64,000 bases of DNA, taken from an uncultured Treponema sp. (GTDB lineage: Bacteria; Spirochaetota; Spirochaetia; Treponematales; Treponemataceae). The notes below the pieces were generated by a model. It was not told the origin of the DNA. It searched no databases and saw only the letters and a program-made list of their open reading frames with translations. The position numbers and the translations under genes were made by a program. Of this stretch, positions 54,729 through 59,099 are shown piece by piece (positions within the stretch are counted from its first letter, which is position 1; every line of letters starts with the position of its first letter). The DNA is taken from positions 58,848 to 122,847 of the forward strand of contig NZ_CAMHSK010000002.1 in the NCBI RefSeq assembly GCF_946187725.1. The letters are read 5' to 3'.

Positions 54729-54801
54729 GGGGGCATAGTCCAGCTGGTAGAACACCGGACTCATATTCCGTATGTCATAGGTTCAAGTCCTATTGCCCCT
54801 A
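54729..54801 (+). tRNA. tRNA with CAT anticodon (elongator Met, or lysidine-modified Ile2)
   Basis: Hand-folded cloverleaf: acceptor GGGGGCA/TGCCCCT, anticodon loop CTCATAT, T-arm ATAGG-TTCAAGT-CCTAT, discriminator A, no encoded CCA. It lacks the three G:C pairs of initiator tRNA. One mismatch each in the D stem and the anticodon stem. Confidence 0.8.
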
Positions 54802-55345
54802 CTTTTTAGAACCCACGCTATTTGATAGTGTGGGTTTTTCTTTTTATACGATATATTTTTTATGGACTTGAACCTACGCTTCAAGCGGTTCAGGCATAGC
54901 CTTCACCGAGACTCGTCTAAAAACTTGCCTCGCAAGTTTTTTCGCTTCGCGACCGACTCGCTACCTATTGCCCCCTGCTTACTTAAACAAACTATTTTAT
55001 AAGTCGTGGGGCTTTCTTTTGTACGGTATATTTTTTACGGACTCGAACCTACGCTTCAAGCGGTTCAGGCATAGCCTTCACCGAGACTCGTCTAAAAACT
55101 TGCCTCGCAAGTTTTTTCGCTTCGCGACCGACTCGCTACCTATTGCCCCTACCTACTTAAACAAACTATTTTATAAGTCGTGGGTTTTTCTTTTGTACGG
55201 TATATTTCCTACGGACTTGAACCTACGCTTCAAGCACAGCCCTCAGCGAGACTCCCCTAGAAACTCATCTCACGAGTTTCTTCGCCTTTGGCGACCGGTT
55301 CGCTAGGTTCTGCGCGGTTCGAGCCTAGCTCTCACCGAGAGTTAC
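54789..55345 (+). repeat. Tandem triplication of a 175-bp unit that begins inside the tRNA 3' end
   Basis: CCTATTGCCCC(T/C) occurs at 54789, 54964 and 55139, an exact 175-bp period. Units run 54789-54963, 54964-55138 and 55139-55305 (the last with an 11-bp deletion), and a partial sub-copy follows at 55306-55340. Confidence 0.9.
54811..54845 (+). terminator. Rho-independent terminator after the tRNA
   Basis: ACCCACGCTA-TTTGA-TAGTGTGGGT (one G:T pair) followed by TTTTCTTTTT. Confidence 0.8.
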
Positions 55346-56913: not shown

Positions 56914-57894
56914 ATGCAGATTATTTCTGACGAAAAAATCACAGAATTCAACAATTTTCTCAACAAACATGATTTTTTTTATGTAATCGGACACAAAGAC
57001 CCTGATGGAGACGCAATTTACAGTTGTCTAGCCATGAGAGATTTACTCGAAGCAAAGAACTTAAACTATCAGCTTTTGTCGGCAGGGCCTTTCAAGAGAC
57101 AGGAAATCCGCGCTCACGCAAAGCTCTTCTCAAATCAGATGACCTTTCTTTCAGAACCGGAGCGTAAAAAGGCTGCACTTATAATTCTCGACTGTTCGGA
57201 AATGCTGCGTCTTGGAGAAATAGACGGCGATTTAAAAAATCTCGATACATTCATAATCGACCATCACAAAACGGCAGATGTAAAAGGAAACTGTATAATC
57301 GATCCGACATCCCCAGCCACTGCATGTCTCGTTCAGCAGCTTTACGAAAAAATTGTTGGTAAAATCCCTGAAAAAACAGCTCAGAATTTGTTTTTCGGTC
57401 TTTCAACGGACACAGGTTATTTCCGTTTCTTAAACACTGATTCAGCGGAAGTCTTCAGAATGGCAGCTCGTCTTGTAGAATCAGGAGCAAATCCACGAAA
57501 GACATATGATGCAATAACAGGCGGAAAACCTTATTCTACACGAAAACTTCTCGGACTAATGCTCGAAAGAACGGAACGACGCTATGGAAACCGGCTTGCA
57601 GTCACATACGAAACAATGGAAGATACAAAGCAATGGGGGCAGGAAGGAAGAGATTCAGATGCACTATACTCACTGCTTCTTTCTGTAGACGGAATTGATG
57701 CTGTGCTGTTTGTGCGTCAGGATACAGAACTTACCTGCACATGTGGATTCCGTTCCCGTGACAAGGTTGATGTAAGTGCGATCGCGGCAAAATTTGGCGG
57801 TGGCGGCCATAAAAATGCGGCAGGTTTAAGCATAGACGGAAAACTTCCTGATATCCTCGAAAAAATCTGTGCTGAGTTCAAGAAAGTCCTATAG
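56914..57894 (+). CDS. nrnA: DHH-family phosphoesterase, NrnA-like oligoribonuclease/pAp phosphatase
   Basis: Motifs HKDPDGDA, IIDHHK and GGGGHKNAAG (DHHA1). Confidence 0.75.
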   Translation: MQIISDEKITEFNNFLNKHDFFYVIGHKDPDGDAIYSCLAMRDLLEAKNLNYQLLSAGPFKRQEIRAHAKLFSNQMTFLSEPERKKAALIILDCSEMLRLGEIDGDLKNLDTFIIDHHKTADVKGNCIIDPTSPATACLVQQLYEKIVGKIPEKTAQNLFFGLSTDTGYFRFLNTDSAEVFRMAARLVESGANPRKTYDAITGGKPYSTRKLLGLMLERTERRYGNRLAVTYETMEDTKQWGQEGRDSDALYSLLLSVDGIDAVLFVRQDTELTCTCGFRSRDKVDVSAIAAKFGGGGHKNAAGLSIDGKLPDILEKICAEFKKVL

Positions 57895-57916
57895 GTTAAA
57901 CGCTAGATAATTAGAA

Positions 57917-57945
57917 AGCTGTCCATTCATCGGGCAGCTTTTTTT
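57917..57945 (+). terminator. Rho-independent terminator after nrnA
   Basis: AGCTGTCC-ATTCATC-GGGCAGCT (one T:G pair) followed by a T-run that merges into the repeat array. Confidence 0.7.
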
Positions 57946-58073
57946 GTTGGATTTTGTTGGATTTTGTTGGATTTTGTTGGTTTTTGTTGGTTTTTGTTGG
58001 TTTTTGTTGGTTTTTGTTGGATTTTTGTTGGATTTTTGTTGGATTTTGCTGGATTTTTGTTGGATTTTGCTGG
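57941..58073 (+). repeat. 13 head-to-tail 10/11-bp T-tract repeats
   Basis: Eight 10-bp units (W)TTTTGTTGG at 57941-58020, then units of 11, 11, 10, 11 and 10 bp (ATTTTTGTTGG / ATTTTGCTGG) to 58073. Confidence 0.95.
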
Positions 58074-58102
58074 AAATCCTGTTTTTTTTCAATAATTAAG
58101 AC

Positions 58103-58119
58103 TTGGCACGCATATTGCT
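58103..58119 (+). promoter_or_regulatory. sigma54 (RpoN) -24/-12 promoter
   Basis: TTGGCACG-CATA-TTGCT matches YTGGCACG-N4-TTGCW at every conserved position. GG is at 58105-58106 and GC at 58117-58118. SD GGAGG lies at 58131-58135 and the ATG at 58140. Confidence 0.6.
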
Positions 58120-58139
58120 TTAATAAAAGTGGAGGCAAT

Positions 58140-59099
58140 ATGAAAAAGATTGACATTGAAGATTTACCTGAATATGTACGGGAACACAAACTTACAAAAA
58201 AGGAAGCCACAAAAATCATCTGGGAAGAAATTTACATGAATCCGAACAGGTACGGACTTATGTACTTTTCGGAAGATCAGAAAAGCGACCTGCTTATATT
58301 CATGCAAAAACACTTCGAAAAACTCTTTGATAAGTTCATACCGGGAACAATCACTTTCAGGACATTTATAATAGGCTGCATAACAAATCATAAAAAGCAG
58401 TTTTTGAAAAATCAGATGATGAACGAGGTAGAAAGACGGAGCTTAATAGCTTATTTCGAAACAAAACTTGAAGAAGATTCCCAAAAATACCTCATTAAAA
58501 TCGCAGAGGATGATGAAATCGAAACTTGCCCAAAAAACAAGACATTTTCGGACATCACAAACCAGGAACTAGGTAAGCTGGACAAACGCAATAAGAGGAT
58601 TGCCGAACTGACAGCCCTTGTCCTTATGATGAAAGCCTGCAAGGACATCGACGATGACATGTTAAAATCAATAAGCGACTTCACCGGAATCCAGAAAAAT
58701 GTGCTTTTTAAAACGATTGAAGAACTGAAAGAATCGATGGCCAGAAAAGATGAAAGAAGCCAGGTTTTGATACAGAAAAGAAACAATGCGTTCTTTTTCC
58801 ACCGCAAATACATGCAGGAGATGAGAGCACCAAATGCGAACGAAAAAAGACTGGTAGAACTAAGAAAGAAATATGCAAATCAAACGAAAAAATGGGAAAA
58901 TCATAACAAAAATCTTTCTATCCGTTCAAATTCTCCCTCAAATGAAGAAATCGCACGAATCATCGGAATAAAACCAAGAACTGTTTCTTTCTATATTAAC
59001 CACGCAAAAAATGAATCAAACAGGCTGAGGATTCAAAAATTCTTCAATAAAGAAAGAACCGACGATGTTCCAGAAAATGAGAATACACAAGACTACTAG
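58140..59099 (+). CDS. Hypothetical protein with a C-terminal HTH and weak sigma70 region 2/4-like features
   Basis: Start at MKKIDIED with a strong GGAGG SD. The C-terminal SNEEIARIIGIKPRTVSFYINHAK looks like a sigma region 4.2 HTH. ITFRTFIIGCITNHKKQFLKN resembles region 2. The composition is K/E/N-rich. Confidence 0.55.
   Translation: MKKIDIEDLPEYVREHKLTKKEATKIIWEEIYMNPNRYGLMYFSEDQKSDLLIFMQKHFEKLFDKFIPGTITFRTFIIGCITNHKKQFLKNQMMNEVERRSLIAYFETKLEEDSQKYLIKIAEDDEIETCPKNKTFSDITNQELGKLDKRNKRIAELTALVLMMKACKDIDDDMLKSISDFTGIQKNVLFKTIEELKESMARKDERSQVLIQKRNNAFFFHRKYMQEMRAPNANEKRLVELRKKYANQTKKWENHNKNLSIRSNSPSNEEIARIIGIKPRTVSFYINHAKNESNRLRIQKFFNKERTDDVPENENTQDY

Follow-up and report, generated by a model that had tools for sequence, protein, structure and literature searches.

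Organization of the locus

We analyzed a 64-kb stretch of DNA from an uncultured Treponema sp. (hereafter the window), in which a short intergenic region separates an nrnA-like phosphoesterase gene from the gene for a 319-amino-acid (319-aa) protein with a C-terminal helix-turn-helix (HTH). The region carries an intrinsic terminator, a tandem array of T-tracts repeated about once per helical turn, and a -24/-12 promoter of the sigma-54 type (Table 1). Comparison with orthologous loci and modelling of DNA shape suggest that the array is held in helical phase with this promoter and may act as a built-in bend.

Table 1. Features of the region between the nrnA-like gene and the downstream gene (positions in the window)
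Feature	Position	Strand	Basis
nrnA-like DHH/DHHA1 phosphoesterase gene	56914..57894	+	Pfam DHH 5e-13, DHHA1 3.5e-11
Intrinsic terminator of the nrnA-like gene	57913..57949	+	Hairpin -17 kcal/mol, z = -3.5
Tandem array, 13 units of TTTTGTTGGA	57942..58074	+	Tandem Repeats Finder and unit positions
Non-repeat spacer continuing the lattice	58075..58102	+	Read from sequence and tract distances
Sigma-54-type -24/-12 promoter, TTGGCACGCATATTGCT	58103..58119	+	No mismatch to YTGGCACG-N4-TTGCW
Shine-Dalgarno GGAGG (58131-58135) and start codon ATG (58140)	58131..58142	+	Read from sequence
Candidate regulator gene, 319-aa all-helical protein with C-terminal HTH	58140..59099	+	Homologues P0002-P0040

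Tandem Repeats Finder resolved the array into 13.0 copies with a period of 10 (92% matches, score 197, consensus TTTTGTTGGA). Units started at 57942, 57952, 57962, 57972, 57982, 57992, 58002, 58012, 58023, 58034, 58044, 58055 and 58065. Read in this frame, seven units of 10 bp were followed by units of 11, 11, 10, 11, 10 and 10 bp, for a total of ten 10-bp and three 11-bp units and a mean period of 10.23 bp. A first-pass annotation of the sequence had described a 13-unit array of eight 10-bp units followed by units of 11, 11, 10, 11 and 10 bp; this is the same array with its frame set one base earlier. Every one of the 13 units contained a T4-T5 tract, GGA was also contained in the units, and the periodogram of T-runs peaked at 10.4 bp (z = 16).

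Both ends of the array agreed with that annotation, apart from the one-base shift of frame. Upstream, the terminator stem (57915-57924 pairing with 57932-57941) runs into a T-run (57939-57945) that enters the first unit and doubles as the first T-tract of the array. Downstream, a gap of 31-32 bp, given previously as 32 bp, separated the end of the array from the GG of the -24 element. This gap was itself occupied by a T8 tract (58082-58089) whose centre lay 20 bp upstream of the GG centre. No further tandem array of period 9-12 with at least four copies was found elsewhere in the 64-kb window.

Conservation of the sigma-54-type promoter

The promoter dinucleotides were located at 58105-58106 (GG) and 58117-58118 (GC), within an exact TGGCAC-N5-TTGCT at 58104-58119. 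The full-consensus element of the first-pass annotation, together with its GGAGG and ATG, was present at the positions claimed. Exact TGGCAC-N5-TTGCW occurred once in the window (0.07 expected), and at least one match was obtained in 7 of 100 shuffles; taken alone, this uniqueness within the window is only suggestive. Matches to looser forms of the motif were at chance level (35 found vs 36.5 expected).

The promoter call is solid because the element is conserved in orthologues. We compared 46 orthologous loci, 22 from genomes and 24 from metagenomes, and found TGGCA[CT]-N5-TTGCW at the equivalent position in 35 of them. Among the loci lacking a match were L011 and L013, on contigs truncated in or close to the promoter, and L044-L046, whose proteins matched most weakly. 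In the window TGGCA lay 36 nt ahead of the ATG, and in most loci of the main clade 36-39 nt. Mean pairwise identity was 0.84 across the 18-nt promoter core vs 0.42 for the 58 bp upstream of it, and the element was retained in orthologues whose proteins were only 31-34% identical (L016-L018, L037, L043). Conservation of this kind in intergenic DNA, at a fixed position before the Shine-Dalgarno sequence and ATG and down to 31% protein identity, is hard to explain other than by use by the sigma-54 holoenzyme, and it strongly supports the original sigma-54 reading. We therefore consider TTGGCACGCATATTGCT very likely to be a real sigma-54 promoter, whose dependence on sigma-54 we infer from these comparisons.

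All fetched loci together held only one other match to TGGCA[CT]-N5-TTGCW, at position 6701 of L001. It falls within the coding sequence of a flagellin (flaB), and we rejected it as a chance match.

From the usual distance between the -12 element and +1, transcription would be expected to start at about 58129-58131. A start at about 58130, one base ahead of the Shine-Dalgarno sequence, leaves a leader of only ~10 nt. No sigma-70-like promoter was predicted on the plus strand between the terminator and the ATG.

Accessory sites were searched for upstream of the promoter. The E. coli-type site for integration host factor (IHF; WATCAANNNNTTR, at most one mismatch) was absent from 57910-58103, although the preference of a spirochaete HU/IHF-like protein may differ. 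A motif search of the window returned no HU/IHF-like gene. No inverted-repeat upstream activating sequence was found ~80-150 bp upstream, where the region from -80 to -150 is the array. Besides the terminator stem, only one inverted repeat was present in the region, in which the -12 region pairs with the sequence around the start codon.

This second inverted repeat is a feature in its own right. In the window and in L004, L005, L006, L008 and L014, the -12 region (CATATTGC, 58111-58118 in the window) is perfectly complementary to the start-codon region (GCAATATG, 58135-58142). A read-through RNA is predicted to fold with the Shine-Dalgarno sequence and AUG in a stem (P = 0.88 for the window vs 0.44 for shuffled upstream sequence). 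A transcript from the sigma-54 start would not include the 5' arm, and no structure is predicted for it. Folding of this sort might restrict translation to sigma-54 transcripts, an arrangement resembling that of Borrelia rpoS with its long and short mRNAs. The pairing was limited to the sub-clade with 36-nt spacing, and no covariation supports it.

Two distant orthologues (L019, 2905-3000; L038, 1826-2000) had a long leader after the promoter in which a ~40-nt module (CCTCCCTGCACGACCGCTAACGCGGAGTTTCATAAGGAGG) was duplicated. Each copy ended in a Shine-Dalgarno-like GGAGG, with ~100 nt of additional sequence between the copies in L038.

A T-tract lattice in register with the promoter

Arrays of ~10-bp T-tract units preceded the promoter in ~19 non-redundant lineages, which formed the set for our comparisons of phase and curvature. 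Their downstream proteins were 33-63% identical to that of the window. We scanned 282 kb of Treponema DNA, the window included, for arrays of period 9-12 with at least four copies, and all that were found sit directly upstream of this promoter.

The sequence of the unit differed between lineages. After the T-run, units read GTTGGA, GAGAGA, ATTGGA, AATTG, CGTTGG, GCAAGA or GTCAGA, while the T4-T5 tract and the ~10-bp period were kept. Across the orthologous arrays only the T-run was well conserved and the preceding G more weakly, with the other positions of the unit variable by lineage. T-run periodograms gave best periods of 10.05-10.4 bp (z = 6-19 in the main array loci).

The position of the T-tracts relative to the promoter was shared. 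In nearly all 19 loci, tract centres lay ~20, 30, 41, 51, 61, 72, 82, 92, 102, 112 and 122 bp upstream of the GG centre. T-tracts of the non-repeat spacer fell on the same lattice as those of the array, and many loci added an A-tract 6-13 bp upstream of the GG. Phase coherence of the T-tracts across loci was R = 0.80. When proximal (14-60 bp), middle (60-130 bp) and distal (100-200 bp) tracts were considered separately, R was 0.73-0.79 (Rayleigh p ~1e-5). Folding the upstream 150 bp at 10.2 bp gave a T frequency of 0.69-0.80 in the tract bins, and G was enriched in the two bins preceding the T-tracts (0.32-0.44 vs 0.20 background). Intervals of 9, 11 or 12 bp accounted for 51 of the 129 T-tract intervals, so the register would drift if nothing held it. 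These comparisons suggest that phasing matters more than unit sequence, and that the array is very likely under selection for helical phase.

A lattice registered to the promoter would be just as expected if a protein filament contacted polymerase. The array could thus be a periodic protein-binding platform, presenting one helix face per turn and either delivering an activator or silencing the promoter, with curvature secondary. Candidate ligands would be a nucleoid-associated or HU/Hbb-like protein, the C-terminal domains of the polymerase alpha subunit, a regulator of the OmpR/PhoB type or the sigma-54 activator. Winged-helix response regulators bind direct repeats with a period of 10-11 bp, which the array fits. 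TTTTGTTGGA or variants with one mismatch recurred in the window, L001, L002, L003, L005, L007, L009 and L012, and G is enriched just before the T-tracts. A loose precedent is the 10-bp direct repeat bound by BosR at the sigma-54 promoter of Borrelia rpoS (PMC3037356). Against such a platform, the unit is poorly conserved beyond the T-run, and whole arrays are built from other units, such as nine copies of TTGTTTTTAA in L002 and TTTTGCAAGA in L015. The lattice also runs on through the non-repeat spacer using T- or A-tracts alone, and the array lacks the inverted repeats typical of activator sites. Site numbers from 5 to ~25 are hard to square with a defined oligomer, and no candidate binding protein was identified. 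On balance we regard a platform as possible but rather unlikely, and the multimeric activator platform proposed in the first-pass annotation was not supported.

The variability of the unit bears also on a role for the array as RNA, either a U/G-rich read-through transcript or an A/C-rich antisense repeat titrating CsrA or another RNA-binding protein. The GGA of the window units would suit this, as would a weak sigma-70-like site on the minus strand (58092-58064) that points into the array. GGA is missing from many orthologous arrays, however (e.g. L004, L005 and most of L002), a terminator precedes the array, no Rfam match was obtained at the array or leader, and a phase lock to the -24 element would be meaningless for RNA. 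We find such a role highly improbable, and rejected a CsrA or Hfq sponge specifically because GGA and the other non-T positions are unconserved and the terminator lies ahead of the array.

Predicted curvature of the array

We modelled DNA curvature with our own implementations, parameter values and sign conventions included, of three published dinucleotide wedge models (Bolshoy-Trifonov, AA-wedge and De Santis). For the window array these models gave end-to-end/contour ratios of 0.52-0.64 (background median 0.95) and bent the DNA by a net 155-166 degrees, which ranks among the top 0.1-0.2% of equal-length segments of the window. The first-pass annotation had proposed a curvature prediction for this region, and the one obtained here is a strong, nearly planar bend of ~160 degrees. 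The modelled helical repeat was 10.26-10.33 bp per turn, alongside the real mean period of 10.23 bp. The real mixture of 10- and 11-bp units bent more, and more planarly, than hypothetical arrays of 13 x 10 bp (~100 degrees) or 13 x 11 bp (~20 degrees).

Bend direction was determined from a path-based axis, with shuffled-upstream and +5 bp controls that guard against bias from the conserved promoter sequence. In the 19 loci, the modelled upstream DNA exited at -150 to 180 degrees from the GG major groove (R = 0.82-0.84). Directional coherence fell to R = 0.21-0.28 (maximum 0.62) with shuffled upstream DNA, and a modelled 5-bp insertion flipped the direction of the bend. Under the Trifonov model, 13 of the 19 orthologous arrays fell in the lowest 5% for end-to-end/contour ratio. 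In these models the phase and direction of the bend are conserved and its magnitude is not.

Variation in unit number

Closely related strains differed in the length of the array. One whole 10-bp unit distinguished L003 from L026 (coding sequences 100% identical) and L014 from L030 (98.6%), and two whole 10-bp units distinguished L004 from L027 (99.5%). In these three independent near-identical pairs, clean unit insertions or deletions inside the array were the only difference, with flanks 98.6-100% identical. Since the whole array sits upstream of the -24 element, such changes leave the spacing of the core promoter elements and the reading frame unchanged. These pairs support the earlier suggestion of a length-variable spacer that preserves helical phase.

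A larger contrast was seen between L007 (2860-2965) and L031 (560-845), whose coding sequences are 96% identical and whose promoters are identical: L007 has ~6 units and L031 ~25. Their nrnA 3' ends also differ, and the contrast suggests recombination or rapid expansion at the site.

Rapid turnover of units, with copy number differing between near-identical strains, is what might be expected of a neutral or nearly neutral minisatellite. Such an array would have been seeded by the terminator T-run, in which it does begin, and kept by slippage beside a real promoter, its phase a by-product of ~10-bp insertions and deletions. Neither array length nor predicted bend is conserved, and distant orthologues lack an array. 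Against this account, arrays are kept at this one site in ~19 lineages of divergent protein sequence and nowhere else in the DNA scanned. The 51 irregular intervals should blur the register, yet phase holds to 100-200 bp, and spacer tracts that are not repeat units are also in phase. Furthermore, the 10/11 mixture of the window matches the modelled helical repeat. We consider neutrality a poor explanation, with little chance of accounting for the whole pattern.

The downstream gene

The best homologue of the 319-aa protein was 63% identical, and the family comprised 668 clusters at 50% identity. All cluster members that carried a source name were from Treponema, T. ruminis and T. saccharophilum among them, and all were named 'hypothetical protein'. 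The protein matched the sigma-70/extracytoplasmic function (ECF) model TIGR02937 at 1.9e-5 (24.4 bits, below the cut-off of 42.9), and GerE and Sigma70_r4_2 matched its C-terminal HTH, both below cut-off. Sub-threshold matches recurred across the family for TIGR02937 (11 of 27, best 4e-8), GerE (20 of 27) and Sigma70_r4_2 (13 of 27). No sigma region 2 or 4 domain scored above curated thresholds in the 319-aa protein.

Structure prediction gave a similar picture. A Foldseek search of the PDB with the AlphaFold (AF2) model (mean predicted local distance difference test score 80.7) returned no match at E <= 0.001. The non-significant top list consisted mostly of ECF sigma factors, and the likewise non-significant alignment to region 2 of sigma-E had a target-normalised TM-score of 0.66-0.68 and a root-mean-square deviation of 3.1-3.5 A. 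The family profile had no matches among PDB sequences. Together, these sub-threshold similarities and the modelled fold suggest that the protein is probably a highly divergent sigma-70/ECF-like regulator of a Treponema-specific family.

Other open reading frames (ORFs) that cross the array were rejected as genes. A 381-aa ORF at 57954-59099 on the plus strand is a low-complexity translation of the repeat, and it was set aside because homologues begin at the MKK... methionine with its conserved Shine-Dalgarno sequence. Minus-strand ORFs crossing the array are likewise low-complexity translations of the repeat.

Three public gene calls in the family (P0012, P0017 and P0197) are 60-80 residues too long. 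They start within the repeat and read through array and promoter, translating the array as ...FVGFCWILLD... and the promoter as ...LLAQILL... or ...VGTVFA.... Public calls that translate the array in this way are annotation errors.

Upstream gene and other features of the window

The protein encoded upstream matched the NrnA equivalog model below its cut-off. The nrnA-like gene was the conserved left neighbour in most orthologous loci, with a common C-terminus (...EFKKVL*) before the intergenic region, and a comparable hairpin and T-run followed it in most orthologues. A terminator stem of the form GCGTG(G/A)...(C/T)CACGC was found in eight loci (L003, L004, L005, L006, L008, L023, L025 and L029), and the stems of the window and several other loci were unrelated to it. 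The recurrence could reflect common ancestry or a protein site that doubles as a terminator. We also considered whether the terminator stem conceals a conserved activator site, and rejected this as a general feature because GCGTGG...CCACGC is absent from the window and several loci.

Elsewhere in the window, a tRNA-Met gene (54729-54802) was the only known RNA family found in the RNA-family search made for the array and leader. Directly after it lies a tandem repeat of 175 bp (54818-55235, 2.4 copies, 92% identity). A gene for transfer-messenger RNA occupies 1760-2139 and encodes the tag peptide AIFERKEEEVEETSFAEALAA. A perfect 14-bp tandem repeat (ACTTTCAGCTTTCC, 3.3 copies, 249-294) is located near the 3' end of a minus-strand ORF at 293-1642.

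A model for the phased array

We give roughly even chances to a reading in which the array, a slippage-prone repeat, bends the DNA intrinsically and in phase with the promoter and does the job that IHF does at other sigma-54 promoters. Positions 57913-58142 would then form one compact control module for a Treponema-specific, sigma-like regulator gene. All the intergenic DNA from the nrnA terminator to the -24 element is a T-tract lattice of ~10.2 bp spacing in fixed rotational register with the GG, and the tandem 10/11-bp repeat makes up most of it. Its phased tracts would give the strong, nearly planar intrinsic bend, with upstream DNA predicted to exit opposite the GG major groove, i.e. on the promoter face free of polymerase. 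AAA+ activators approach the unbound face of the promoter, and the orientation of a bend between the activator site and the -24/-12 element is critical (PMC3900584). The bend reading agrees with this work and with the absence of IHF-type and palindromic activator sites.

As a protein-free architectural element, the array would loop back the upstream DNA, or else wrap or position the closed complex for its activator. The built-in bend proposed in the first-pass annotation gains from the GG-locked lattice in 19 lineages and from modelled planar curvature of conserved direction; that the array replaces IHF is our inference.

Slippage or unequal exchange would add or remove whole units, changing the length and total bend of the array while its phase stays. 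If bend size changes with phase kept, expression could be tuned heritably. In its fullest form, the array would be a heritable expression dial acting via DNA shape, in which slippage by one turn alters the size of the bend and thereby the output of a sigma-54-to-ECF-like cascade. Neither IHF nor a sequence-specific enhancer would be required, since the curved DNA would by itself place the closed complex within reach of an activator acting from solution. We think this extension unlikely. If true, it would describe a contingency locus that acts via curvature, rather than spacing or frame, and is conserved in a clade of gut spirochaetes.

Several observations weigh against the bend reading. The phase statistic rests on loci with shared ancestry, and the conserved phase could be a partial by-product of insertions and deletions of whole units. 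Orthologous arrays vary in length from ~5 to ~25 units. The Trifonov model placed 6 of the 19 arrays outside the lowest 5% of background segments by end-to-end/contour ratio, and four of these six ranked at the 45th-88th percentile. Net bend angles of the orthologues ranged from ~25 to 165 degrees. We rejected a precisely conserved bend angle on account of this spread, which means that a precise loop geometry is not conserved. Differences in copy number come from short-read (metagenome) assemblies, for which assembly error is a residual possibility; runs of identical units are short (40-50 bp).

The distant orthologues L016-L018, L037 and L043 have the promoter 5-7 nt past the nrnA stop and no array, so an array is not required for the promoter to work. 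With no intergenic room in these loci, an activator site, if any, would lie inside nrnA. These five loci also lack a terminator.

No upstream activator site for the loop to deliver was identified, and six-frame searches found no GAFTGA motif, RpoN box or activator Walker A motif in the window or in the first 22 orthologous loci. Predicted sigma-54 activators have been reported in Treponema denticola (PMC12070737, PMC3914990), and the genus plausibly has the sigma-54 machinery for this reason. The Borrelia activator Rrp2 activates rpoS without an enhancer (PMC1976401), a further point against delivery by looping. If the Treponema activator is also enhancer-free, the bend would wrap or position the closed complex, or set the promoter at the apex of a supercoil, rather than deliver the activator.

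Comparison with known systems

Sigma-54 promoters in which curvature stands in for IHF offer the closest analogy. At Klebsiella nifLA, phased A/T-tracts reportedly lie between the NtrC sites and the promoter, and at the Pseudomonas putida Pu promoter curved inserts are said to replace the IHF site. The Treponema promoter resembles these in its phased A/T-tracts upstream of the -24/-12 element and its lack of an IHF consensus site, and in such systems it matters which way the bend points with respect to the promoter face (PMC3900584). It differs in that the proposed bend is a tandem 10/11-bp repeat of 60 to ~270 bp filling the intergenic region up to the -24 element. The Treponema array also varies by whole units between strains and is conserved in a clade.

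A second parallel is with contingency loci and variable-number tandem repeats (VNTRs) in promoters. In the phase-variable promoters of Neisseria, Haemophilus and Mycoplasma, expression is turned on or off as the repeat alters the reading frame or how far apart the promoter elements lie. The Treponema array shares with them a tandem repeat in the promoter region whose copy number differs between near-identical strains. Its unit, however, spans a single helical turn and is placed upstream of the entire core promoter. Because phase is kept, a graded effect at most would be expected, unlike the on/off switching of promoter VNTRs.

Phased A-tracts also occur at sigma-70 promoters such as that of Clostridium perfringens plc. 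Curved or UP-element-like promoters of this type likewise place A/T-tracts in helical phase directly upstream of the core elements. They differ in the number of tracts (3-5 vs 13-25 in Treponema), in acting on the sigma-70 holoenzyme via the alpha C-terminal domains, and in having no tandem arrays with unit polymorphism.

Among spirochaetes, the Rrp2-RpoN-RpoS pathway of Borrelia burgdorferi (PMC1976401, PMC3037356) also has a sigma-54 promoter driving a gene for a sigma-type regulator, probable in the case of Treponema. Both promoters have little room for a classical enhancer and short direct repeats beside them (the BosR site TAAATTAAAT in Borrelia). The Treponema protein is not RpoS and belongs to a Treponema-only family with sub-threshold ECF-type similarity. 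Moreover, the Borrelia promoter is without a long phased T-tract array, and the Treponema genomic context is nrnA and rdgB.

Sigma-54 promoters, phased A-tract curvature, curvature replacing IHF and promoter VNTRs are each already known singly. We found no description of their combination here, a long T-tract repeat lattice that occupies the entire intergenic region and is phase-locked to a -24/-12 element, conserved in a clade and polymorphic by single helical turns. The first-pass annotation had called the architecture undescribed, and our text search of the literature returned nothing similar, which is weak negative evidence.

Implications

At sigma-54 promoters, activation depends on how the DNA that separates activator from polymerase is arranged. 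To our knowledge, IHF-using promoters of proteobacteria and engineered bends are the source of almost all that is understood of this geometry. The loci described here constitute a natural series, with dozens of lineages carrying the same promoter behind 5 to ~25 T-tracts in one register, and strain variants one turn apart. Such a series is suited to asking how the size and phase of a bend control sigma-54 initiation, and whether curvature alone replaces an architectural protein or an enhancer. Treponema ruminis RU1 and T. saccharophilum provide cultured entry points. More broadly, the locus points to an unstudied cascade in Treponema of the rumen and gut, in which sigma-54 would control a divergent sigma-like regulator and which would parallel RpoN-RpoS in Borrelia.

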